A stretch of DNA of 64,000 nucleotides from Burkholderiales bacterium (lineage in GTDB: Bacteria > Pseudomonadota > Gammaproteobacteria > Burkholderiales > JACQAP01), in the NCBI GenBank assembly GCA_046590325.1, contig JBKJUC010000162.1, positions 21,768 through 85,767 of the forward strand, given 5' to 3'. The position numbers and the translations under genes are program-made. Shown one piece after another: positions 3,620 through 22,745 of the stretch (positions are counted from its first letter, which is position 1; each line of letters starts with the position of its first letter). Under the pieces are notes generated by a model. It was not told the origin of the DNA. It saw nothing but the letters and a program-made list of their open reading frames with translations, and did not search any database.

Positions 3620-4696
3620 ATGAGCCGTCCGATCCGGGCTTCCTTCGACCTCTCCGCGCTCAAGCACAACCTTGGTGTGGTCCGGCAGCTCGCCGGCAAT
3701 GCCCGGACCATGGCCGTCATCAAGGCCAACGCCTATGGTCACGGTTTGCTGCGCGCGGCGCGGGCACTCGCCGCTGCAGACGGTTTCGCGCTGCTCGAAC
3801 TGGATGACGCAATCCGGCTGCGGGATGCCGGCTACCGCCAGCCCATATTGCTGCTGGAAGGCTTCTTCGCGGTAGACGAGCTGGAACCGATCCTGCAGAA
3901 CGGCCTCGCCGTTGTGCTCCACTGCCGCGAGCAACTGGACATGCTCAAGGCGCTGCGCGGCGACCGAAAGGTCGATGTTTTTGTAAAGTTCAACACCGGG
4001 ATGAACCGCCTTGGCTTTCCGGCGGAATCCGCAGCGGGCGTGCTGCAGGAGCTCAATGCGTTGGCGTGCGTGGGCGAGAAGGTATTGGCCACGCACTTCT
4101 CCGATGCCGAAGGCGTAAGCGGTATCGACTTCCAGATCCGGACTTTCGAGCGCCTGGTCGCGCGGCCGGGTTTCAAGCGCTCCATGGCCAACTCCGCAGC
4201 GCTGCTGCGGTTTCCGGAGGCACGTGGCGAATGGGTGCGGCCGGGAATCATGCTGTATGGCGCTTCACCGCTGGAAGATTGTTCGGCCCAGCGCCTTGGC
4301 CTCAAGCCGGTGATGACCCTGACCAGCCGCATCATCGCGGTACAGGATCTGAAAAAAGGCGACACGGTAGGCTATGGCAGGGTGTTTATGGCGGATCGCA
4401 AAATGCGCATTGGCGTGGTCGCCTGTGGCTACGCCGATGGCTATCCGCGCCATGCCTGGAACGGCACCCCTGTTTTGGTGGATGGGGTGCGCGTGCAAAT
4501 GGCGGGACGGGTTTCCATGGACATGCTGAGCGTGGATTTGACGGATGTCCCCAGGGCTGGAATCGGCACTCCGGTCACGTTGTGGGGCGCGGACCTGCCG
4601 GTCGAAGAGGTGGCGGCGGCGGCCGGCACGGTCAGCTACGAATTGCTATGCGCACTGGCGCGCCGGGTGCCGGTCGAAGACATCAACACGGAATAG
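3620..4696 (+). CDS. alr: alanine racemase
   Basis: Start MSRPIRASFDLSALKHNL. PLP-lysine motif AVIKANAYGHG. The C-terminal YELLCAL...RVP is typical of Alr. Confidence 0.9.
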   Translation: MSRPIRASFDLSALKHNLGVVRQLAGNARTMAVIKANAYGHGLLRAARALAAADGFALLELDDAIRLRDAGYRQPILLLEGFFAVDELEPILQNGLAVVLHCREQLDMLKALRGDRKVDVFVKFNTGMNRLGFPAESAAGVLQELNALACVGEKVLATHFSDAEGVSGIDFQIRTFERLVARPGFKRSMANSAALLRFPEARGEWVRPGIMLYGASPLEDCSAQRLGLKPVMTLTSRIIAVQDLKKGDTVGYGRVFMADRKMRIGVVACGYADGYPRHAWNGTPVLVDGVRVQMAGRVSMDMLSVDLTDVPRAGIGTPVTLWGADLPVEEVAAAAGTVSYELLCALARRVPVEDINTE

Positions 4697-4698
4697 CC

Positions 4699-6048
4699 AT
4701 GGCCAAGGCCAAGACGATCTATACCTGCACCGAGTGCGGCGGCCAGACGCTCAAATGGCAGGGGCAGTGCCCGCACTGCACGGTGTGGAATACGCTGGTC
4801 GAGACCGTCGCCGAGAAGACCGCCTCGCGTTTCCAGGCGCTGACGGAACCCAGCAAGCTGCAGAAACTGTCCCAGGTCGACGCAAAAGAGGAACAACGGC
4901 GGCCGACCGGCATTGGCGAGCTGGACCGCGTGCTCGGCGGCGGCTTGGTGCGTGGCGCGGTGGTCCTGCTTGGTGGCGATCCCGGCATCGGCAAGTCCAC
5001 GCTGTTGCTGCAGGCGCTGTCGCTGATGGACGCCTCATGCAACGCCGTTTATGTGAGCGGCGAGGAATCCCCGCAGCAGATCGCCATGCGCGCCAGACGC
5101 CTGGCGGTTGAGCCCGATTCCCTCAATCTCCTTGCCGAAATCCAGCTCGAGAAAATCCTCTCCGTACTGGCCGCGCAGAAACCCGACGTCGCGGTCATCG
5201 ATTCGATCCAGACGGTCTATTCAGAAGCCCTGTCATCGGCCCCGGGCAGCGTCGCACAGGTACGCGAGTGCGCGGCACAGTTGACGCGCTTCGCCAAAAC
5301 TTCGGGCACGGCGATCTTGCTGATCGGCCACGTCACCAAGGAAGGTGCGCTGGCAGGGCCAAGGGTGCTTGAACACATGGTTGACGCGGTTCTCTACTTC
5401 GAGGGCGACACGCATTCGAGTTTTCGTCTGGTGCGGGCGATCAAGAATCGTTTCGGAGCAGTCAACGAACTCGGTGTTTTTGCCATGACCGACCGCGGGC
5501 TGCGCGGGGTATCGAATCCGTCGGCCCTGTTCCTGTCCCAGCATGGAACGCAGGTTCCTGGATCCTGCGTGATGGTCACTCAGGAGGGCAGTCGTCCTCT
5601 GCTGGTCGAGATCCAGGCGCTGGTTGACGAGGCGCATGCGCCGAATCCGCGCCGGCTGACCGTGGGATTGGAGCAGAACAGGCTGGCGATGCTGCTGGCG
5701 GTGCTGCATCGTCACGCCGGCATTGCCGCATTCGATCAGGATGTATTCGTCAATGCGGTCGGCGGCGTGAAAATCGACGAACCGGCGGCGGACCTGCCGG
5801 TGCTGCTGGCGATCGTGTCATCCCTGAAAGGCAAGCCCCTGCCGGAAAAACTGGTCGCGTTCGGCGAAATCGGACTGGCAGGGGAGATTCGTCCGGTGCA
5901 GCGCGGCCAGGAGCGTCTCAGGGAAGCGGCGAAGCTGGGATTCCGTCTGGCCATCATTCCCAAGGCCAATGCGCCGAAAGGCGGAATCGAGGGAATCGAA
6001 GTGATGACCGTGGAGCGGGTCGAGGAAGCGATCGCCCGCCTGCGTTGA
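4699..6048 (+). CDS. radA: DNA repair protein RadA
   Basis: Start MAKAKTIYTCTECGG. Zn-finger CxxC...CxxC, Walker A GDPGIGKST, KNRFG motif (IKNRFGAVNE) and a Lon-like C-terminal domain. The ORF-track extension back to 4066 overlaps alr. Confidence 0.92.
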   Translation: MAKAKTIYTCTECGGQTLKWQGQCPHCTVWNTLVETVAEKTASRFQALTEPSKLQKLSQVDAKEEQRRPTGIGELDRVLGGGLVRGAVVLLGGDPGIGKSTLLLQALSLMDASCNAVYVSGEESPQQIAMRARRLAVEPDSLNLLAEIQLEKILSVLAAQKPDVAVIDSIQTVYSEALSSAPGSVAQVRECAAQLTRFAKTSGTAILLIGHVTKEGALAGPRVLEHMVDAVLYFEGDTHSSFRLVRAIKNRFGAVNELGVFAMTDRGLRGVSNPSALFLSQHGTQVPGSCVMVTQEGSRPLLVEIQALVDEAHAPNPRRLTVGLEQNRLAMLLAVLHRHAGIAAFDQDVFVNAVGGVKIDEPAADLPVLLAIVSSLKGKPLPEKLVAFGEIGLAGEIRPVQRGQERLREAAKLGFRLAIIPKANAPKGGIEGIEVMTVERVEEAIARLR

Positions 6049-6060
6049 GGCGCGGACGGT

Positions 6061-7395
6061 TCAGCGCAGGAACAGCAAGGCGACGGCGGCGGTGGCAAGT
6101 ACCAGACTGCCTGCCCAAACCAGCCTGAGGTTCATGCCGCCAGTTCCCGAGGCGCCGGCGCCAGGCCGCATCAGTGCGCCGGGTTGTTGCCAGGTTGTGC
6201 TGTCTGACAGGTTCGGCGGATTGGCGCCGCTGCGTTTCGCGTCGGCTATCGCCTTCAGGCGCGCGACCTTCTGGGTCTCGGAAAACTGATCGAGTTCCTT
6301 CTCGGTGCCGGTTAGAGCGGCGAGCCGCATGGTGGCGCTGAAGTTGTCGAAGGCTTCTGCCAGCCCCAGCGAAGGCTGGGTCGATTCCTGGCCCTGCGGA
6401 GGCCCGTCGGTGCCGCTCTGTGCGGTGTCGGCTCCAGCGTCGGCGGCGGCAAAAATCCGCTCTGCCTTGTCCTCCTGCCGCGTGAGGGGGGCAGCGGGCT
6501 GCACGGACGGCGAGCTTTGTGCGGGCATTGCCAGCAGATCGGCGGGTGGGGCCTGACTTATCGCCGCTGCCAGAATTTCGCGCAGGTCGTGCGCCATGTC
6601 TTTGGCATTCAGATAGCGGCCATCGAGATTCTTCGCCAGGGCCTTGGCCGCAATGAAATTCAACACTTCGGGCAGATCTGGATTGAGCGTCTTGGGCGCA
6701 GGCGGGTTGAAGTTCATGGTCTGGTACATCACGCCGTGGATATTGTCCGCCACGAAAGGCGAGGTGCCGGTCAGCATTTCGTAGAGCACCACTCCCAGCG
6801 AGAATATGTCCGAGCGGCCATCCGCGCGCTTCCCCGAGACCTGTTCCGGCGACATGTACTTGGGCGATCCCAGGATCATGCCGGTCATGGTTTTGACTTC
6901 GTTGTTGCGCATGCGCGCAATGCCGAAGTCGGTGATCTTCACCGAGCCGTCGGCCAGGACCATGATGTTCGCGGGCTTGATATCGCGATGAATGATCTGG
7001 TGGTCGTGGGCATACTGCAGGCCATCCGCCACCTGGGCGGTGATATCGAGCGCCTGCTGCAGGGCTATGGGCGTGCGTGCCTGCATTATGCGGCGCAGTT
7101 CCTGCCCTTCGAGAAACTCCATCGCCATGTAGGCGACGCGCTCGCTGCGTCCGATGTCGTGAATGACCACGATGTTGCGGTGGGAGAGGCCGCCCGCCGC
7201 CTTGGCCTCCTGGTAGAAGCGGGCCTCGTATTCGGCGAGTTCATCTTTCGGCAGGGTCAAATTGACGGTCTTGATCGCGACGATGCGGTCAAGCATCGGG
7301 TCGCGTGCCTTGTAGACCACGCCCATGGCACCCTGGCCCAGTTCGCCGATGATTTCGTAGCGGCCGAGTGTGGCGACTGCAGCATTGGGATTCAT
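6061..7395 (-). CDS. Hanks-type serine/threonine protein kinase, C-terminally tail-anchored
   Basis: Motifs GELGQGAMGVVY, VAIK, HRDIKPANIM, DFG and SPEQ are all present. A low-complexity linker is followed by one terminal hydrophobic helix (LVWAGSLVLATAAVALLFL). ATG at 7395 shares 1 nt with the upstream TGA; an alternative TTG lies at 7398. Confidence 0.88.
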   Translation of the reverse strand: MNPNAAVATLGRYEIIGELGQGAMGVVYKARDPMLDRIVAIKTVNLTLPKDELAEYEARFYQEAKAAGGLSHRNIVVIHDIGRSERVAYMAMEFLEGQELRRIMQARTPIALQQALDITAQVADGLQYAHDHQIIHRDIKPANIMVLADGSVKITDFGIARMRNNEVKTMTGMILGSPKYMSPEQVSGKRADGRSDIFSLGVVLYEMLTGTSPFVADNIHGVMYQTMNFNPPAPKTLNPDLPEVLNFIAAKALAKNLDGRYLNAKDMAHDLREILAAAISQAPPADLLAMPAQSSPSVQPAAPLTRQEDKAERIFAAADAGADTAQSGTDGPPQGQESTQPSLGLAEAFDNFSATMRLAALTGTEKELDQFSETQKVARLKAIADAKRSGANPPNLSDSTTWQQPGALMRPGAGASGTGGMNLRLVWAGSLVLATAAVALLFLR

Positions 7396-7793
7396 CAACT
7401 ATTCTTCTGCCTGGACTTCACGCTTCTGAATACAGGGCCCCAGATCGGGTGCCCGATTTCCGCGGGTCCGAGGTCGAAGTCCGGGTCGAGTTCGAAAGCG
7501 ATGCCGAACTCCTCGCGGCAAGTAAGCGGCTGTCCGGAGACACAGGCAATGAACGCGAGGTACTTGTGCGCCTTGACGCGATCGGGGCGGCGGAGGCCTT
7601 CCTCGAGGGCGAACTGGAGGCGGCGCTGCGCGGTACGGTAATTGCCCTCCTCGTAGTTGCGGACGCCATCCTCCAGATAGCCGGTGCCGGCGGTGCGGCT
7701 TGCGCGAAGGTCCTTGAACGGGCCTTCCGCGCAACCGCCAAGGAATGCGGCGACGAAGGCGAAAATCAGCAGGAGACGGAAAGCGGGCATCAT
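7395..7793 (-). CDS. small lipoprotein with TPR-like helical repeat
   Basis: 132 aa. Signal peptide with lipobox FLGGC. GYLEDGVRNYEEGNYRTAQRRLQFALEEG resembles a TPR helix pair. It lies between the cyclase and kinase genes. Confidence 0.6.
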   Translation of the reverse strand: MMPAFRLLLIFAFVAAFLGGCAEGPFKDLRASRTAGTGYLEDGVRNYEEGNYRTAQRRLQFALEEGLRRPDRVKAHKYLAFIACVSGQPLTCREEFGIAFELDPDFDLGPAEIGHPIWGPVFRSVKSRQKNS

Positions 7794-7801
7794 CTGTAGC
7801 T

Positions 7802-9049
7802 TCAGTTGAACTTGTGTTTGATGCGGACTCTCTGGTCCGCCTTGACTTCCACCACCTGCGAAAACACGGGGAAGTTGGCATTGCGGATTTCTATGGTGCG
7901 TTTGCCGGGGGCGACTTCGAGTTCATTGACGGGCGGGCTGACGCCGACCCGGTTGCCGTCCACGAACACCTCGCCCCAGGGGGCGACGGCCAGCGCGATG
8001 ATCGCTATGCCGGCGGACGCTGGCGGCAAAGACTCGCCGGCCGGTTCTTCATGCTTGGAGAAGAACGACAAAGGCCAGCCCTTGGACTCCCTCTTTTCCT
8101 CCGAAACCGGCTCGGCGGTAAGGGTTGGCGGACTTGTACCATCGCCCGCCTGCGCGGGAGTCGGCTTGGATGAGGAATGTTTCTTGTCCCGGCGGGGGAG
8201 GCCGATGACGGCTGCCGCCGATTTCTCGGAAAGCAGGTTTTTCTGCGGCGCCTCGGCGCCCGGCTTCTCCTCGGCGGCGGGCAGGTCGCTGTGGCCGAGG
8301 AAATTGAGCGTCACTGCCAGGGCGAAGGCGCCAAATGACAGTGTGGCCGTTCCGTATGCGATGGTCCGATTGTTCAGCCACGATTCGACACCGCGCAGCC
8401 AGTGGCCGGTGCCGGTTGCAATGCCCGCGGCCGCGGCCTGGCGGCGGCTTTCATGGGAGGACACCTCGGCGCGCTCGGCGGGGGAGCGCACGGTGCCGCC
8501 TCGGTTCTGGGTATAGCCGACACTGTAAATCTCGTGTTCCCGCACATGCTTGTCGGTACGCGAGCCCTCGTAATTGAAGAGCTTCGCGTAGCCTCCCGAG
8601 ATGTGCGAGACCACCTCGAAATAAGATCGCGAAACCAGCACCTGCCCCGGTTTGGCGAAACCCATCACGCGCTGGGCGACATTGATGCCATCACCGATGA
8701 TGTTGGGCTGGCCGTTCAGGTCGCGCACCAGACGGACCGGTCCGAGATTGATGCCGATGCGCGCCGGCAGTTTCGGTGTTTCGCCGGGCCGGGGCGCGAA
8801 GGCTTCGCGAAGGCTCATCGCAACGAACAGCGCGTCCTCGGGATCGCCCAGAAAATTGATCGCTACGCCGTCTCCGGTATCGAGAATAATGCGGTCGTTG
8901 GCCGCGATGTCGCGAATGGCTTCCGCGATCAGCGAATTGAACTGGTCCTTGAGCTGGATCTGTTCGGAAACCGGCTTGCGCGAGTATTCGGTGATATCCA
9001 GGAACAGCACGCTGCAGATAAACGTGCGGTTGGCGCGCTCAGGCATCAT
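7802..9049 (-). CDS. class III nucleotidyl (adenylate/guanylate-type) cyclase with TM helix and C-terminal PEGA-like domain
   Basis: The N-terminal cyclase homology domain carries metal Asp motifs FLDITEYS and DTGDG plus NVAQR. One TM helix (IAYGTATLSFGAFALAVTLNFLG). C-terminal APWGEVFVDGNRVGVSPP...APGKRTIEIRN is PEGA-like. Confidence 0.8.
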   Translation of the reverse strand: MMPERANRTFICSVLFLDITEYSRKPVSEQIQLKDQFNSLIAEAIRDIAANDRIILDTGDGVAINFLGDPEDALFVAMSLREAFAPRPGETPKLPARIGINLGPVRLVRDLNGQPNIIGDGINVAQRVMGFAKPGQVLVSRSYFEVVSHISGGYAKLFNYEGSRTDKHVREHEIYSVGYTQNRGGTVRSPAERAEVSSHESRRQAAAAGIATGTGHWLRGVESWLNNRTIAYGTATLSFGAFALAVTLNFLGHSDLPAAEEKPGAEAPQKNLLSEKSAAAVIGLPRRDKKHSSSKPTPAQAGDGTSPPTLTAEPVSEEKRESKGWPLSFFSKHEEPAGESLPPASAGIAIIALAVAPWGEVFVDGNRVGVSPPVNELEVAPGKRTIEIRNANFPVFSQVVEVKADQRVRIKHKFN

Positions 9050-15008: not shown

Positions 15009-15086
15009 GTTCGTTTGAGCACCTGTTACTGTTGGTTCGAATATCTATCGACCAGGGGCGTTTCCGCAACGCCCGGAACCAGAACA

Positions 15087-15806
15087 ATGATCCGCAAAAA
15101 GCAGGCGCCCGCCGAAACCCGCGACCGCATCCTTTTCACTGCGGAAACCCTTTTCATGGAACGCGGCTATGCCGCCACCTCGTTGCGCATGATCACGGCC
15201 AAGGCAAGGGTCAATCTTGCCGCCGTCAACTATCACTTCGGCACCAAGGAAGCGCTGATCCGCGAGGTGTTCGAGCGCAGGCTTGGCCCGCTCAATTCGG
15301 CCCGTATCGCCTATCTCGACCGGCTGGAGGCACAGGCACGCGGCAGGGCGCTCAGCGTCGAGCAGATCATCGAAGCGATCGTTGTTCCGGCCCTGCAGGT
15401 CACCCGCGATCCACTCGCCGGAGGTGCCGTGTTCCTGCGGCTGCTGGGCAGGGCCTTCTCCGAACCCGGAGATACCATGCGCGACATCCTGCCGGCCCAG
15501 TACCGCCAGGTCGTCGTGCGCTTCAAGGAGGCGCTGGTGCAAGCGCTGCCGCAGGTCCCGGATCAGGAACTGACCTGGCGCATGCACTTCATGTTCGGCG
15601 CGTTGTCCTACACCATGGCCGGCAATGACGCCTTGAAACTCGTTGCCACTTGTAACCTCGAGGGAGGCGACGAACCGGAGTCGATCATCCGCCGTCTGAT
15701 TCCTTTCCTGGCATCGGGCCTGAAGGCGCCGCTGCCGGGTGCGAACGGCAAACGCAGCGCGCAACCAGGAAGGATCGGCAGCGTGCCCGGCCGCAAGGCC
15801 GCGTGA
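15087..15806 (+). CDS. psrA: TetR family transcriptional regulator, PsrA-like (fatty-acid responsive)
   Basis: Start MIRKKQAPAETRDRILFTAETLFMERGYAATSLRMITAKARVNLAAVNYHFGTKEAL. By recollection, the HTH region is very close to Pseudomonas PsrA. It lies upstream of fadE. Confidence 0.75.
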   Translation: MIRKKQAPAETRDRILFTAETLFMERGYAATSLRMITAKARVNLAAVNYHFGTKEALIREVFERRLGPLNSARIAYLDRLEAQARGRALSVEQIIEAIVVPALQVTRDPLAGGAVFLRLLGRAFSEPGDTMRDILPAQYRQVVVRFKEALVQALPQVPDQELTWRMHFMFGALSYTMAGNDALKLVATCNLEGGDEPESIIRRLIPFLASGLKAPLPGANGKRSAQPGRIGSVPGRKAA

Positions 15807-15843
15807 TCCCGAACAAATAACCGGATACAGAAGGAGCAGCACC

Positions 15844-18339
15844 ATGGACGTATTTTTGTGGATTGTCGCCGCGGTGGCGGTGTTCTGGGGGCTGGCTTAT
15901 TTCCGGGCCACTACGGTGGCGTGGATCATGGGCATTGCCGTCTATCTCGGCGCATTCACCCTGTGGTCCGACGCGAATTCGGGGAGCAAGGTGCTGCTTT
16001 GGACGGTAGTCCTGGTCGTCACGGCCATGCTGGCGGTGCCGCCGCTGCGGCGCGGGCTGATCAGCGATCCGTTGCTCAACTGGTTCCGCAAGGCGCTGCC
16101 GCAGGTTTCGCAGACCGAGCAGGAAGCGCTCGATGCCGGCACGGTCTGGTGGGACGGGGAATTGTTCAGCGGCAATCCGGACTGGAACAAGCTGTACGCC
16201 ACGGCGAAGCCGCGGCTCACGCCTGATGAGCAGGCCTTTCTCGACGGTCCGACCGAAGAGTTGTGCCGGATGTGCGACGAGTGGAGGATTTCCCATGAGC
16301 TGAACGACCTGCCACCCGAAGTCTGGCAGTTCATCAAGGACAAGGGCTTCCTGGGCATGATCATTCCGCGCCAGTACGGCGGGATGGGTTTCTCGGCCTA
16401 CGCCCATTCGCAGGTGGTGCAGAAACTGGCCACGCGCAGTTCGACCGCCTGCGTTTCGGTCATGGTGCCGAATTCCCTCGGGCCCGCCGAACTGCTGCTT
16501 CATTACGGCACCGACGAACAGAAGAATCATTACCTGCCGCGCCTTGCGAAAGGCCTGGAAATGCCGTGCTTCGCGCTGACTGGACCCGATGCCGGTTCCG
16601 ATGCGGGCTCGATTCCGGATTTCGGCGTGGTCTGCAAGGGGCTGCATGAAGGGCGCGAAGTCCTGGGCATCCGCCTGACCTGGGAAAAGCGCTACATCAC
16701 GCTCGGGCCGGTTGCCACCATCCTCGGTCTCGCGTTCAAGCTGCACGATCCCGAACATTTGCTTGGCGGCAAGGAAGAGATCGGTATCACCCTGGCGCTG
16801 ATCCCGACTCGGCATCCCGGCGTCAACATTGGCCGCCGTCATCTCCCGCTGAATGCCTCTTTCATGAACGGCCCGAATTCGGGCAAGGACGTCTTCATAC
16901 CGCTCGAGTGGGTTATCGGCGGCAAGGAGTTCGCGGGCCAGGGCTGGCGCATGCTTATGGAGTGCCTCGCCGCGGGCCGTTCCATCTCCCTGCCGTCTTC
17001 CAGCTCCGGCGCCGCGAAGCTCGCGGCGCGCACGACCAGCGCCTACAGCCGGGTGCGCAGCCAGTTCAAGATTTCAATCGGAAAATTCGAAGGCATCGAG
17101 GAGGCGCTGGCCAGGATCGGCGGCAATACCTATGCCATCGATGCGGCCCGCACGATGACCGCGGGAGCCGTGGACCTGGGCGAAAAGCCATCCGTTATTT
17201 CCGCGATCGTTAAGTATCACTGCACCGAGCGCGCCCGCCAGGTGATCAACGATGCCATGGACGTGCACGGCGGCAAGGGCATCTGCCTCGGGCCCAGCAA
17301 TTACCTGGGCCGGGCCTATCAGCAAATTCCCATCGGCATCACGGTCGAGGGGGCCAACATCCTGACGCGCAGCATGATGATCTTCGGCCAGGGTGCGATC
17401 CGCTGCCATCCGTATGTGCTGAAGGAAATCGAAGCCACCCGCACGCAAAATGCCGCCGAGGCCGGACAAAAATTCGACGAAGCATTCTGGGATCACGCGC
17501 GCTTCGTGCTCTGCAACGCGGCGCGGTCGCTGTGGCTGGGCATCACGGGCGCCAGCCTGGTGTCCGTCCCCGGCGCGATCGAACTGCGGCGCTACACGCG
17601 ACAGCTCGCACGCCTTGCCGCCGGGTTCGCGCTCGCTTCGGACGTGGCCATGCTGTTCCTGGGCGGCGACCTGAAGCGCAAGGAAAAACTGTCCGGCCGG
17701 CTTGGCGACATCCTGAGCCAGCTATATATCGCCTCGACGGTGCTGAAGCGCTTCGAGGATGACGGCAGGCCGCAAGCCGACTTGCCCTTTGCGCAATGGG
17801 CGCTCGAGGATTGCCTGCATCGCATCCAGGAGGCGTTCTATGGCGTGTTCGAGAACTTCCCCAGTCGAATCGCTGCGTGGAAAATGCGCTTCCTGGTTTT
17901 CCCCTGGGGGCGGGCCTACTCGCCGCCCTCGGACTGGCTTGGCCAGAAGGTTGCTCGCGCCATGCTGGAACCCTCCCAGACCCGCGATCGCCTGACCGCG
18001 AACATGTTCCTGCAGAGGAACGAAGACGATCCGGTCGGGCGCCTGGAACTCGCAATGCAGGCAGCACCCGCCGGAGAGGCCGTGGAGGTGAAAGTCCGCA
18101 ATGCCCAGAAGGCCGGCGAGATATCCGGATTGACCGACGAGGCGCGGGTGGCGGCTGCCCTTGAGAAAGGCATCCTGACTGCCGAAGAAACAGCGCAATG
18201 GCGCCGGTTCACGACCTTGCGGCGAGCCTGCATCATGGTGGATGATTTTCCCCACGACGTCGGTTGTATCCAGGCCGAGTCCGATAGTTTCAGCGTGCCC
18301 AAGGTGGGAAACATCGTTTCGCAGAAGACCGCGGCATGA
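15844..18339 (+). CDS. fadE: acyl-CoA dehydrogenase FadE (about 830 aa, membrane-associated N-terminus)
   Basis: RBS AGGAG precedes the ATG at 15844. Hydrophobic N-terminus MDVFLWIVAAVAVFWGLAYF, an ACAD core and a long C-terminal domain typical of FadE. Confidence 0.88.
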   Translation: MDVFLWIVAAVAVFWGLAYFRATTVAWIMGIAVYLGAFTLWSDANSGSKVLLWTVVLVVTAMLAVPPLRRGLISDPLLNWFRKALPQVSQTEQEALDAGTVWWDGELFSGNPDWNKLYATAKPRLTPDEQAFLDGPTEELCRMCDEWRISHELNDLPPEVWQFIKDKGFLGMIIPRQYGGMGFSAYAHSQVVQKLATRSSTACVSVMVPNSLGPAELLLHYGTDEQKNHYLPRLAKGLEMPCFALTGPDAGSDAGSIPDFGVVCKGLHEGREVLGIRLTWEKRYITLGPVATILGLAFKLHDPEHLLGGKEEIGITLALIPTRHPGVNIGRRHLPLNASFMNGPNSGKDVFIPLEWVIGGKEFAGQGWRMLMECLAAGRSISLPSSSSGAAKLAARTTSAYSRVRSQFKISIGKFEGIEEALARIGGNTYAIDAARTMTAGAVDLGEKPSVISAIVKYHCTERARQVINDAMDVHGGKGICLGPSNYLGRAYQQIPIGITVEGANILTRSMMIFGQGAIRCHPYVLKEIEATRTQNAAEAGQKFDEAFWDHARFVLCNAARSLWLGITGASLVSVPGAIELRRYTRQLARLAAGFALASDVAMLFLGGDLKRKEKLSGRLGDILSQLYIASTVLKRFEDDGRPQADLPFAQWALEDCLHRIQEAFYGVFENFPSRIAAWKMRFLVFPWGRAYSPPSDWLGQKVARAMLEPSQTRDRLTANMFLQRNEDDPVGRLELAMQAAPAGEAVEVKVRNAQKAGEISGLTDEARVAAALEKGILTAEETAQWRRFTTLRRACIMVDDFPHDVGCIQAESDSFSVPKVGNIVSQKTAA

Positions 18340-19118: not shown

Positions 19119-19508
19119 AAACGCATTGACCGTCGAGAATGCGAAGGGAAATAAAATTTCAAGCCAAAGGAACAAGGGCTTCAGCACTTGCTTGGAATTA
19201 GAAGTAGAAAGAAAATTTTGAACTAAATGATCCAGGCGGCCGAGCCTGTCGAAATTTCTACACACCCCCCTGTTTGTGCTGATAAGTGTCGGAGGCTCCT
19301 CGTTTCCGGCTAGCGAGTCGCCGCCGGGCGACACGTCCAAACAAACACCCATTTCACCTTTATTACTGAATTTCAAGACTTTCTGGCTTCATGAGCAGAT
19401 TGTTCCTGCTTTCGGGCATGCAACCTGCTCATGACGTGGGTGGGACGAATTACACATAGATTTAAGAGTTCTCTGCATTTGCGAAATTTATGAAGAACGG
19501 ACACAGCA

Positions 19509-21683
19509 ATGGCATTTTTTGATTTCAAAGCGGGAATGACTGCGTTTGCGAAAGTCATTCAGTGGTTCGTAATGAGCAAACGCATGCTGCTGATCGTTTC
19601 GCCATTCCTGGCGATTGTCGCGGTACTCGTGTGGCTTGCCATTGTCAGCATGGACATCCTGGCTGCAGGTCGCGCATATGTCGAAGGCGAGAGCCTGTGG
19701 TCCAAGAACCAGAAGGAAGCGGTATTCCACCTGGTGCGATTCGCGGCGACTGGCTCCGAATCGGATTTCCTCAGCTATCGCAAAGCGATCATGGTGCCGA
19801 TGGGTTTCCGCAACGCTCGCCTTGAGCTTGAAAAGCCCTATCCAAATGACTCCACCGTGCAGGCCGGATTCATCCAAGGCGGAACCCACCCGGATGACAT
19901 TGCGGGCGTTATCAGCCTGTACGAGCGCTTTCATCGTGTGAGCTACATGAAGAACGTGCTCGATATCTGGAAAACCGGCGATGAGTTCATGGAGAGGCTT
20001 GCCGTGGCAGCCGAAGATCTCCATGCGCTTCAGGTTTCCGGTGGCGTGGACCTCCCTGCGCGCGATAAGGTCTTGCACCGCATTTTCCAGATCAACGAAG
20101 AACTCAGGCCGTGGCAGAACCGATTTTCAAACACTTTGGGTGAGGCCACGCGCTGGATCCGGTCCATGCTGTTGCTCGTGATCCTGACGGTCGCGGGAAT
20201 TCTGATTCCATTCGGTATTTTTCTTACCCAGCGCATGGTCAGTCAAGTCGATCGCGCGGAACGCGAGCTCAAAGAGCTCAAGCTCGGGCAAGAATACTCG
20301 GTGAAGCTTGCCTACCACGCCAGCCACGACCCTCTCACCAATCTGGTTAACCGCCTTGAATTCGAAAAGCGCCTCGCGCTGGCTTTACACACCGCAGTCA
20401 GTCAGGATCGCCAGCATATCGTCATGTACCTGGATCTCGATCAGTTCAAAATCGTCAACGATACCAGCGGGCACGCGGCCGGTGATCAATTGTTGCGGCA
20501 GGTGGGGGCATTGCTAAAAGAACAAGTGCGGGAAGGAGATTCTCTTGCCCGTCTGGGCGGAGACGAATTCGGCGTATTGCTTGAAAACTGTCCGATGCAG
20601 GAAGCAATTGGCATTGCGGACAAGCTGCGCCAGTGCATAGCGGACTTTCGCTTTGTCAGCGAAGGCAAAGCGTTCAGCATCGGCGCTAGCATTGGCGTGG
20701 TACAGGTCGCGGATGGGATGCTCAACCTTACCGACATACTCAGCGCAGCAGATGCCGCCTGCTACACGGCGAAGGAGAAGGGGCGCAATCGTGTTCAAAT
20801 CTATCGTCCGCACGACAGTGAAGTCTCCATGCGCCGGGGCGAACTGGAATGGGTGCCGCGTCTGCAACGAGCGCTCCAGCAAGGACGCTTCGTGCTTTAC
20901 TCTCAACAGATCCTGTCCATCGAGGAGCACTCTCCTCAGGCGAGCCATCACGAACTGCTCGTGCGCATGGTTGACGAGTATGGCAAGGTCGTTCCCCCGA
21001 TGGCGTTCATCCCTGCCGCCGAACGCTATAGCATCATGCCGATGATAGACCAGTGGGTTGTTCAAAACGCGTTCGCTGCGATCAGCTCCCTTGGCCCGGA
21101 TTGCGGAACCTATGCAATCAATATTTCGGGCACATCAATCGGTGATGAACGCTTCCTTGAATTTGTTCGGGAACAGTTCCGAAATTATCACATGCCCCCG
21201 CGGAGCGTCTGTTTTGAAATTACGGAGACTGCCGCGATTGCGAACTTTGACAAGGCGGCGCGATTCTTTGGGGAAATGAAGTCGCTTGGCTGTCTGTTCT
21301 CGCTTGACGATTTCGGGGCCGGAATGTCCTCTTTTGGATATCTCAAGCACTTACCCGTGGATTTCATCAAGATCGACGGCAGTTTCGTCAAAGACGTCGC
21401 GCATGATCCGGTTGCAGTCGCGATGGTGCGGGCCATCAACGATGTGGGACATGTGATGGGCAAGAAAACTATCGGCGAGTTTGTGGACGGAGAGATCGTG
21501 CTCCGTACATTGCGCGAAATTGGAGTGAACTTCGCACAGGGAAACTGGATATCTCCCCCTAAACCGTTCCCGGCAAAGCCGCCAGTTGCAACGCTTCCAG
21601 TAGTACGTACCGGGACAGAAATATCTCTTCTGCCACAGGTGCGGATTGCCTCCCGTGAAGCAATTCTCAATTCCACAACATGA
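19509..21683 (+). CDS. bifunctional diguanylate cyclase/phosphodiesterase (GGDEF-EAL) with N-terminal two-TM periplasmic sensor domain
   Basis: GGDEF motif RLGGDEFGVLL with an upstream RxxD (REGD) I-site. The EAL domain has FEITETAAI, DDFGAGMSSFGYL and KIDGSFV. Two TM helices flank about 170 aa of unassigned sequence. An alternative start is ATG 19572. Confidence 0.88.
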   Translation: MAFFDFKAGMTAFAKVIQWFVMSKRMLLIVSPFLAIVAVLVWLAIVSMDILAAGRAYVEGESLWSKNQKEAVFHLVRFAATGSESDFLSYRKAIMVPMGFRNARLELEKPYPNDSTVQAGFIQGGTHPDDIAGVISLYERFHRVSYMKNVLDIWKTGDEFMERLAVAAEDLHALQVSGGVDLPARDKVLHRIFQINEELRPWQNRFSNTLGEATRWIRSMLLLVILTVAGILIPFGIFLTQRMVSQVDRAERELKELKLGQEYSVKLAYHASHDPLTNLVNRLEFEKRLALALHTAVSQDRQHIVMYLDLDQFKIVNDTSGHAAGDQLLRQVGALLKEQVREGDSLARLGGDEFGVLLENCPMQEAIGIADKLRQCIADFRFVSEGKAFSIGASIGVVQVADGMLNLTDILSAADAACYTAKEKGRNRVQIYRPHDSEVSMRRGELEWVPRLQRALQQGRFVLYSQQILSIEEHSPQASHHELLVRMVDEYGKVVPPMAFIPAAERYSIMPMIDQWVVQNAFAAISSLGPDCGTYAINISGTSIGDERFLEFVREQFRNYHMPPRSVCFEITETAAIANFDKAARFFGEMKSLGCLFSLDDFGAGMSSFGYLKHLPVDFIKIDGSFVKDVAHDPVAVAMVRAINDVGHVMGKKTIGEFVDGEIVLRTLREIGVNFAQGNWISPPKPFPAKPPVATLPVVRTGTEISLLPQVRIASREAILNSTT

Positions 21684-22435
21684 AAGAGAAGAAAATGAAC
21701 ATGAACGACAAGGTGGTTCGGGAAATGTCATCGCACCCCCGGTGGGTTTCTTCGTTGTACGAGTTCGTCGCTCCCCATTGGGATAACCTGGTCAATGGGC
21801 AATGGGCGCAGTCGGTCGCGTCGGGGCGGCTAAGCGTCGAACAGATGCAAGGATGGATTCTTCAGATCTACCCGTTCATCTATGATTTCCCGAAGTTTCT
21901 CGCCGAGGGCTTGATCAAGGTAGAGGACGACTTTTCTCGAACATTTCTGATTGAAAACATACGTATCGAAAGGGCGCACGCCGAACATTGGATATGGATG
22001 GGCGAGGGATTCGGTCTCAATCGGCAGCAAATGTTGCATTTGGCCGAGGGCGATACCCCCATCCTGCGTGACGTGCAGTCGCTCACCGACTGGCTTTGGC
22101 GAGTGAACGCCAAAGGGTCTCTTGCCGAGGCCGTGGCCGCAACAAGCTTCGCCATCGAAGGCGTTGCGGGTGCGCTCGCGAGGAAAATCGCCACCGGTTT
22201 CGAGTCCTACCGAGACCGACCGGGTGTGGACATGAATCCCAAAACATACAAGTGGATCCGGGAGCATTGTCACTACGACGACGAGCACCCTAAATTCGCC
22301 TTGGAGATTGTCAAGCACTATGCCATTACCGAGCGTATGCAGCGACAGGTCATGTTCGCGGCCAAGCGCAGCCTGGAACTCCTGGAATTGGCGCTGTTGA
22401 GTTCGACGCAGATAGCACCGACCCAGAAACGATGA
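21680..22435 (+). CDS. heme-oxygenase-like diiron oxidase fold protein (TenA/PqqC/CADD superfamily)
   Basis: 251 aa, all-helical by composition. Putative ligand set ERAH (E97/H100), FAIEG (E160) and HCHYDDEH (H196-x3-D200-x2-H203). ATGA overlap with the GGDEF-EAL stop; an alternative ATG is at 21695. Confidence 0.6.
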   Translation: MKEKKMNMNDKVVREMSSHPRWVSSLYEFVAPHWDNLVNGQWAQSVASGRLSVEQMQGWILQIYPFIYDFPKFLAEGLIKVEDDFSRTFLIENIRIERAHAEHWIWMGEGFGLNRQQMLHLAEGDTPILRDVQSLTDWLWRVNAKGSLAEAVAATSFAIEGVAGALARKIATGFESYRDRPGVDMNPKTYKWIREHCHYDDEHPKFALEIVKHYAITERMQRQVMFAAKRSLELLELALLSSTQIAPTQKR

Positions 22436-22745
22436 CCGGTCGCGTACTTGCGCGGAGTTGGATAAATTAAGTACAGGCGACGACGCCTGGCGCAGGTCAC
22501 ACCAGTAAGTCCAATTGCGGGCAGAAGCGCGTTGCTGCGGCGGCTTCTGACCCTGGCGAAAAGTCTTCTTCGTGCACGGCACGGCGCGTCAACGCCAGAA
22601 ACCAGTCTTGGCGCGATACTTCGCAGGCCTCTTGACCGGGAGCCAACTTGGTCAGACACTGTCTCCAGCATCAGGCCGCCCTTATCCCAAATTTGCGCAT
22701 TCCTCTTCGCTCCTTTGAAGCGTGAGCGGCGAATGCTCCTGGAAA

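Follow-up and report, generated by a model that had tools for sequence, protein, structure and literature searches.

We analyzed a 64,000-nucleotide stretch of contig JBKJUC010000162.1 (positions 21,768 to 85,767; assembly GCA_046590325.1) from an uncultured soil Burkholderiales bacterium, here called the window. Judged by homology, it carries a divergent, PAS-less variant of the rbdA-undA module known from Pseudomonas. The downstream gene, on the forward strand at window positions 21680-22435, encodes a predicted heme-oxygenase-like diiron oxidase (HDO) of the UndA family, 251 amino acids long when counted from Met1. The gene directly upstream, at 19509-21683 on the same strand, encodes an RbdA-like inner-membrane GGDEF-EAL protein without a PAS domain, a predicted enzyme of cyclic di-guanosine monophosphate (c-di-GMP) turnover. 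We found that the pairing of these two families is conserved far more widely than has been reported. The explanation towards which we lean slightly is that the oxidase is a signal synthase and the RbdA-like protein its receptor, together forming a two-gene module homologous to rbdA-undA.

The open reading frame (ORF) of the oxidase was present as described in a first-pass annotation made from the sequence, and the six residues read there as metal ligands were all at their claimed positions. These are E97 (codon at 21968-70), H100 (21977-79), E160 (22157-59), H196 (22265-67), D200 (22277-79), and H203 (22286-88), which together span 21968-22288 on the forward strand, with spacings of 60 and 36 residues. 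The comparison drawn there with the six-ligand site of UndA was correct, and each of the residues lies opposite a UndA ligand in the alignment. In a search of solved structures, the best match was 3OQL, the Pseudomonas syringae UndA orthologue (E 7e-25), while 4WWJ and 6P5Q (P. fluorescens UndA) matched at about 2e-23. UndA entries overall ranged from 7e-25 to 3e-23, and all other solved proteins were at 5e-5 or weaker. The latter included an archaeal TenA-domain protein, THI20 and CADD (about 3-4e-4), and TenA homologues (0.007 or higher). Since the UndA structures match at this level with all six ligands aligned, the ligand pattern is, on the alignment, not a chance one. W192 (codon at 22253-55, forward strand) lies opposite UndA W190 (KWIREH vs KWLKMH), a tryptophan implicated in radical formation (PMC13108848).

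Fold prediction pointed the same way. An AlphaFold model built on 71 homologues was all-helical (predicted local distance difference test score 90.6). The comparison with UndA, CADD, BesC, PqqC, and TenA that had been proposed as a check was made with Foldseek against the PDB, and UndA came out on top. The seven best matches were all UndA or the P. syringae orthologue (template modelling score 0.80-0.84), followed by CADD (0.76) and then by PqqC, TenA, and BesC, so that a seven-helix heme-oxygenase-like bundle is predicted. Pfam returned superfamily models only, TENA_THI-4 (1e-11) and Haem_oxygenas_2 (3e-11). A TenA, PqqC, or CADD identity was rejected, with NCBIfam scores far under the cut-offs (CADD 41 vs 200, TenA 26.7 vs 130, PqqC 22.4 vs 240). 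Sequence, alignment, and fold match thus agreed on an HDO of UndA type with a complete site of three histidines and three carboxylates.

We then examined conservation in an alignment of 71 sequences covering the window clade and Pseudomonas UndA. E97, E160, H196, and D200 were invariant, and H100, H203, and W192 were at least 90% conserved. In total, 25 columns were invariant and 21 nearly so, at 24-30% identity between the window clade and Pseudomonas UndA; the window protein itself is 27-30% identical to characterised UndA proteins (30% by BLASTP). Taken with the structural model, this indicates a genuine HDO that belongs, broadly taken, to the UndA family. In P0245, a relative of 236 amino acids with 43% identity to the window HDO, the ligand set is degenerate (Q-H-E-N-D-H instead of E-H-E-H-D-H), and this protein may be a non-catalytic or mononuclear variant.

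The upstream gene encodes 724 amino acids as the longest ORF; Met22, at 19572, is a likelier start than that of the longest ORF. Hydropathy revealed two hydrophobic segments. The predicted sensor module (19584-20228, forward strand) consists of a first transmembrane helix (residues 26-48), a periplasmic helical domain (49-216), and a second transmembrane helix (217-240). It is followed on the same strand by a GGDEF domain (20319-20792; Pfam 1e-42) in which residues 341-354 (REGD-5 aa-GGDEF) hold an RxxD I-site and an intact GGDEF motif, and by an EAL domain (20859-21560; 7e-57) with ELLVR, DDFG, KID, and EFVD motifs as in RbdA. The closest solved structure was PA0861/RbdA, the P. aeruginosa regulator of biofilm dispersal (5xgb, E 1e-158, 533 bits), and the next GGDEF-EAL tandem scored 226 bits. 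With 42% identity, the protein is collinear with an RbdA of 818 amino acids from the P. putida group, window residues 25-258 of the sensor module aligning with RbdA 11-250. One large gap of about 125 amino acids lies opposite the RbdA PAS domain, and neither Pfam nor the RbdA alignment revealed a PAS domain between the second transmembrane helix and GGDEF. By this comparison, the upstream protein is a PAS-less RbdA homologue and does not have the canonical RbdA architecture. No Pfam model matches the transmembrane-periplasmic-transmembrane module, whose conserved motifs include RAYVxGE(S/G)LWSKxQK. In a published model, the periplasmic domain of RbdA is all-helical and encloses a large, closed cavity with a lining of small aliphatic residues, for which no ligand is known (PMC11372557).

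The first-pass annotation had regarded the pairing of an HDO with a membrane c-di-GMP protein as undescribed, which was wrong. The upstream protein is an RbdA homologue, and a study of 1-undecene in P. fluorescens MFE01 published in 2023 (PMC10614000) credits Rui et al. 2014 with the finding that undA always occurs with rbdA in Pseudomonas. The same paper states that the involvement of RbdA is still to be studied, and reports that undA is required for biofilm maturation in this strain. We also saw the association directly. Using UndA homologues, we recovered loci from P. aeruginosa, the P. putida group, P. syringae, and P. gessardii, and in all four undA followed rbdA (PAS-GGDEF-EAL) immediately and co-directionally, after a gap of 44-74 nt.

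Two of these Pseudomonas species also showed damaged copies. In P. aeruginosa loci L081 and L082, rbdA is frameshifted at about codon 83 (near 3716-3717), with undA at 6001-6783, and in the UndA of this isolate or lineage (P0200) Gln replaces His104, a metal ligand (LNQADYW vs LNHADYW in other P. aeruginosa). Because the frameshift and the ligand substitution occur in one genome, both genes of the pair look impaired there. In P. gessardii (L083), a 1.2-kb insertion at 4406-5595, with a DDE transposase gene at 4469-5449, splits rbdA at about codon 700, and undA is intact.

To define how far the pairing extends, we scanned for homologues with one genome per species. This yielded 80 loci with HDO relatives at 57-96% identity, mostly from uncultured soil Burkholderiales and a few from Steroidobacteraceae and other Gammaproteobacteria. 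Co-occurrence in other genomes had been named beforehand as the test of the pairing, and it was found: an RbdA-like gene with the same N-terminal module was the immediate neighbor of the HDO gene in 73 of 76 informative loci (96%), 67 of them co-directional and 6 divergent. There was no conserved third gene, the commonest other family, which has no Pfam match, being present in 13 of the 80 loci. The HDO homologues form two paralogous clades, with 76-96% and 62-73% identity to the window HDO. At least 13 metagenome-assembled genomes (MAGs) carry one pair of each clade, each HDO beside its own RbdA-like gene, so both genes were duplicated together. The transmembrane-periplasmic-transmembrane module was constant in the partner, and the cytoplasmic sensor domains varied: none in the window clade, PAS in Pseudomonas, PAS-PAS in the paralogous clade, and GAF-GAF in the divergently oriented Steroidobacteraceae type. 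In the paralogous clade the two genes are separated by 180-550 nt, and no c-di-GMP riboswitch or other Rfam RNA matched this gap in 11 loci.

Because the linkage is conserved, a purely metabolic or coincidental reading is not tenable and is largely refuted. It would make the HDO a metabolic enzyme of the surrounding fad cluster, or a TenA/PqqC/CADD-type protein, that neighbors the RbdA-like gene by chance. The pair does sit amid fad genes, and the Pfam matches do not reach below the superfamily level. However, the fad flanks are found in close relatives only, whereas 96% of informative loci keep the RbdA-like gene, whatever the paralogue or orientation. The pair is also a compositional island, with 54.8-54.9% guanine plus cytosine (GC) vs 59-63% in the flanking genes, and the NCBIfam scores for CADD, TenA, and PqqC argue against such an identity. 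We therefore regard this reading as very improbable.

The HDO family search, which covered 1.8 billion cluster representatives and gave a small family of 210 clusters at E 1e-3 or better, uncovered relatives 36-43% identical to the window HDO, closer than Pseudomonas UndA. Several of these are PilZ fusions 365-443 amino acids long, with an N-terminal PilZ domain (up to E 3e-15) bearing the RxxxR and [DN]xSxxG motifs, and their HDO domain retains the six ligands and the tryptophan. In all, PilZ-HDO fusions account for at least 249 clusters (90% identity), whose MAGs of origin are labelled Nitrospiraceae or Deltaproteobacteria; members include P0248, P0249, P0254, P0259, and P0262, with relatives P0391-P0508, and the loci are L087-L092. 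A HisKA_7TM-GAF histidine kinase with seven transmembrane helices (7TM) was encoded by the next gene in all six contexts examined, and in three of them a sigma-54 response regulator and a REC-HD-GYP protein came after the kinase. FadL/Toluene_X genes were located upstream of PilZ-HDO in one locus. In a separate locus, L091, the gene directly upstream of PilZ-HDO (4294-7842, forward strand) encodes a 1182-amino-acid protein combining PilZ, a LuxD-like acyltransferase/thioesterase (PF02273, 9e-26), and a methyltransferase, a hint that c-di-GMP might control the release of a free fatty acid on which the oxidase acts. No paper among those that the literature searches listed concerns an HDO linked to PilZ or c-di-GMP.

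In the PilZ-fused relatives, c-di-GMP very probably acts on the enzyme itself. This bears on a second reading, in which the HDO is an output of c-di-GMP signaling and the local c-di-GMP of the RbdA-like enzyme switches the oxidase on or off. Control would be direct in the relatives, through the fused PilZ, and would run through contact or another receptor in the window pair; the product would be an end product, such as a volatile, an antimicrobial, or a membrane lipid change, that the partner does not sense. The size of the PilZ-HDO family and its intact c-di-GMP-binding motifs speak for such control, as does the second PilZ-fused lipid enzyme beside one PilZ-HDO gene. Antagonistic and inter-kingdom effects are described for 1-undecene (PMC11776017), which would suit an end product. 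By contrast, neither Pfam nor alignment shows a PilZ domain or any other recognisable nucleotide-binding extension on the window HDO, and this reading leaves unexplained both the constancy of the membrane-periplasmic module against changing cytoplasmic domains and the 7TM sensor kinase after all fused forms. We consider it possible but rather unlikely. It is compatible with the synthase-receptor explanation as a feedback loop, and because the PilZ fusions make an action of c-di-GMP on the enzyme very probable in the relatives, a feedback loop or a reversed direction of control is a serious alternative.

The synthase-receptor arrangement is favored because the RbdA-type module is the constant feature of the partner, because a 7TM membrane kinase takes the partner's place beside the fused forms, and because the modelled RbdA periplasmic cavity is closed and aliphatic, with its ligand unknown (PMC11372557). 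UndA acts on C10-C14 substrates (PMC12344977). We infer the substrate, product, direction of signaling, and physical sensing in the window pair as follows. The soluble HDO would most likely hold a free medium-chain fatty acid by its carboxylate at Fe1, activate O2 at the diiron site, and by oxidative decarboxylation form a terminal alkene or a closely related lipophilic product. This membrane-soluble product would be sensed by the RbdA-type membrane/periplasmic module, a predicted all-helical periplasmic sensor held between two transmembrane helices and joined directly to GGDEF and EAL, and sensing would alter c-di-GMP turnover. By analogy with RbdA, the protein would be mainly a c-di-GMP phosphodiesterase. 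In relatives, c-di-GMP would also feed back on the enzyme through the fused PilZ. A fatty-acid substrate is hinted at by the PilZ-LuxD-like neighbor and the FadL/Toluene_X neighbor of the fusion loci, and by the location of the window pair inside a fad cluster. Among the functional guesses of the first-pass annotation, which also included an O2 or metabolite-linked input to c-di-GMP signaling, the comparative evidence favors synthesis of a small-molecule signal.

H-NOX and NosP sensor proteins pair with kinases or c-di-GMP enzymes. The HDO could likewise be a stand-alone sensor of O2, iron, redox state, or fatty acid that binds and modulates the cytoplasmic part of the RbdA-like protein. The partners of the HDO family, GGDEF-EAL proteins and histidine kinases, are both of the kinds that partner H-NOX and NosP. 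The window clade has lost the PAS domain of RbdA, which was reportedly once proposed as a hypoxia sensor, and the degenerate ligand set of P0245 would also be in keeping with a sensor. So would the diiron cofactor of UndA, which is labile and whose activation of O2 is substrate-triggered (PMC13108848). However, Pseudomonas UndA is an established enzyme, and deletion of undA abolishes 1-undecene (PMC10614000, PMC13108848). The full catalytic signature is kept, including W192 (at least 90%) and many second-sphere residues, and the partners bear their own membrane sensor modules, unlike typical H-NOX partners. A sensor role for the HDO is, in our judgement, improbable.

Several points weigh against the synthase-receptor explanation. 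The PilZ fusions imply an action of c-di-GMP on the HDO, the opposite direction to product sensing. The identity of the window HDO to characterised UndA is low, and one and the same ligand set serves very different reactions in different HDOs (PMC13108848); fatty-acid decarboxylation by the window HDO is an extrapolation. The fad surroundings are kept in close relatives only. We found no experiment on the sensing of 1-undecene by RbdA, work that PMC10614000 calls 'planned'. Three HDO loci (L028, L029, and L080) have no RbdA-like neighbor. Read from the partner's side, the association is weaker: the RbdA-type module was found in 80 metagenome loci, of which 31 have an HDO gene downstream, 39 are cut by a contig end, and 8-10 are clearly without HDO, or 8-10 of the 39-41 informative ones. 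In a few cases the module was also found on a GGDEF-only protein or a hybrid kinase. Reciprocal exclusivity of module and HDO was rejected, as about a fifth to a quarter of informative loci are module-only.

We also recorded what stands in place of the usual partner. In L028 (40-2021) and L029 (1432-3890), the HDO gene instead follows genes for a cytoplasmic GAF-HisKA_3 kinase and a NarL/LuxR-type response regulator, so its neighbor there is still a signaling system. Modules without an adjacent HDO (L155:4936-6963, L171:4947-7196, L153:4974-7415, and L161/L168/L169) are joined to PAS-PAS-GGDEF, PAS hybrid histidine kinase, and PAS-GGDEF-EAL outputs. In three HDO-less loci the module gene is transcribed divergently from that of a protein of about 1350 amino acids with AMP-binding and hexapeptide-transferase domains. 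Arg-rich tails with repeated [DE]RR motifs (for example FPERRFADRRGRQ and DRRKSSDRLQIENRRNGERRK) were seen on HDO relatives and are absent from the window HDO. They are C-terminal in HDOs of the paralogous clade (for example P0241; L028:2263-3111; L029:4065-4913) and N-terminal in the fused or extended forms P0250, P0256, P0260, and P0262. That these tails bind nucleotide or c-di-GMP is a guess.

The ATG at 21680 overlaps the TGA of the GGDEF-EAL gene (ATGA), from which translational coupling had been proposed. The overlap is real, but its start codon is not conserved: Met1 occurs solely in relatives at 93% identity or more, and other clade members start at the equivalent of Met6 or Met8, leaving 11-56 nt between the upstream stop and this start. 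A Shine-Dalgarno-like AAAGAG lies at 21683-21688, 6 nt ahead of Met6. The HDO probably starts at Met6 (21695) or Met8 (21701). Because this is the conserved start and the Shine-Dalgarno-like sequence precedes Met6, the window arrangement is probably a gap of 11-17 nt rather than an overlap, and a tight bicistronic unit regardless. The two genes are on the same strand and almost certainly co-transcribed, in line with the co-expression suggested earlier.

The AT-rich intergenic region of 390 nt at 19119-19508 (46% GC) is the presumed promoter region of the two-gene unit; the intergenic region on the other side of the pair is 286 nt. Scans for consensus promoters and terminators around the pair gave counts at chance level. 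A GC-rich palindromic hairpin, CAGGCG-ACGA-CGCCTG, is located at 22474-22489, 39 nt past the HDO stop. It might possibly mark the end of the transcription unit, such sites being present in the region at chance number.

The pair and its upstream spacer (19119-22721) form a lower-GC island within a fatty-acid degradation cluster, with FadE and enoyl-CoA hydratase genes on one side and SDR, FadD, thioesterase, FadL, and FadB genes on the other. The composition suggests that the gene pair arrived as an inserted two-gene cassette. A functional tie to the flanking fad genes was suggestive only and was not adopted, given that this context is restricted to close relatives. No second copy of the pair was found within the window. 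Further upstream, the longest ORFs of a TetR-like regulator (15015-15806) and a FadE-like acyl-CoA dehydrogenase (15739-18339) overlap by 68 nt; the FadE start is probably downstream of the GTG at 15739.

Taken alone, the window gives a modest result, namely that an uncultured soil bacterium has its own divergent, PAS-less version of a pair already known. The main interest lies beyond it, in an unexplained and strongly conserved link of the UndA family to c-di-GMP and membrane-sensor signaling. Two elements of this link are new here: the linkage in 73 of 76 loci, kept through duplication, change of cytoplasmic sensor domains, and a flip to divergent orientation; and the PilZ-fused relatives, closer than UndA, that adjoin a 7TM histidine kinase. 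UndA is the founding HDO enzyme, yet what 1-undecene does for the bacteria that make it is uncertain. RbdA ranks among the most closely studied phosphodiesterases of biofilm dispersal, and still no ligand is known for its periplasmic domain. Because the genes stay paired across distant lineages and a c-di-GMP receptor domain is fused to relatives of the oxidase, a mechanistic coupling between the oxidase product and c-di-GMP signaling is now a testable hypothesis. Its confirmation would connect the making of volatile hydrocarbons with the choice between biofilm and dispersal, and would establish a new family of synthase-receptor signaling.

A broader proposal, which we put forward with more doubt than confidence, is that UndA-family oxidases are synthases of widespread, unrecognised lipid-derived signals, probably 1-alkenes, with RbdA-type modules or 7TM kinases as receptors and with c-di-GMP as both input (PilZ) and output (EAL/HD-GYP). 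If this were true, cell-to-cell or volatile signaling like that of the diffusible signal factor (DSF) family could extend across Pseudomonas, soil Burkholderiales, Steroidobacteraceae, and the MAGs labelled Nitrospiraceae or Deltaproteobacteria, and RbdA would gain its long-sought ligand.

We compared the window pair with known systems. UndA, represented by PFL_4321 of P. fluorescens Pf-5 (PDB 4WWJ, 4WX0, 6P5Q) and PSPTO1738 of P. syringae (3OQL), is a diiron fatty-acid oxidative decarboxylase that makes 1-undecene. Enzymes of its family are marked by a hydrophobic channel that takes a C10-C14 acyl chain, the carboxylate lying on Fe1. The window HDO shares with it the predicted fold, the three-histidine/three-carboxylate ligands, the W190 equivalent, many invariant second-sphere residues, and the upstream neighbor. 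It differs in its divergent C-terminal region and in lacking the insertion of about six residues (FARHPG) that precedes the first ligand helix of Pseudomonas UndA. The upstream protein resembles RbdA (PA0861; PDB 5XGB, 8PPS) in its sensor module, its GGDEF domain with I-site, and its EAL motif variants, whereas the cytoplasmic PAS domain (about 125 amino acids) is missing from it and from the whole window clade. As a pair, the genes match Pseudomonas rbdA-undA in order, strand, and short intergenic gap. They differ in their host, an uncultured soil Burkholderiales bacterium, in their location on a lower-GC island in a fad cluster, and in the duplication of the pair in many uncultured Burkholderiales genomes.

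The arrangement also recalls two unrelated signaling systems. As with H-NOX and NosP, the gene for a small soluble metalloprotein adjoins a GGDEF-EAL or histidine kinase gene, although fold and cofactor differ, UndA is of proven enzymatic function, and the partners here have their own sensor modules. In the DSF family, RpfF is paired with RpfR in the Burkholderia DSF (BDSF) system and with RpfC and RpfG in Xanthomonas. There is no homology to these proteins: RpfF is a crotonase and RpfR senses through a cytoplasmic PAS domain, whereas sensing by the RbdA-type module is our proposal. As a working analogy, both systems would place the gene for the synthase of a fatty-acid signal beside that of its receptor, with c-di-GMP hydrolysis by EAL or HD-GYP as the output, and the PilZ-HDO loci, with their 7TM kinase and REC-HD-GYP protein, mirror the Rpf layout.

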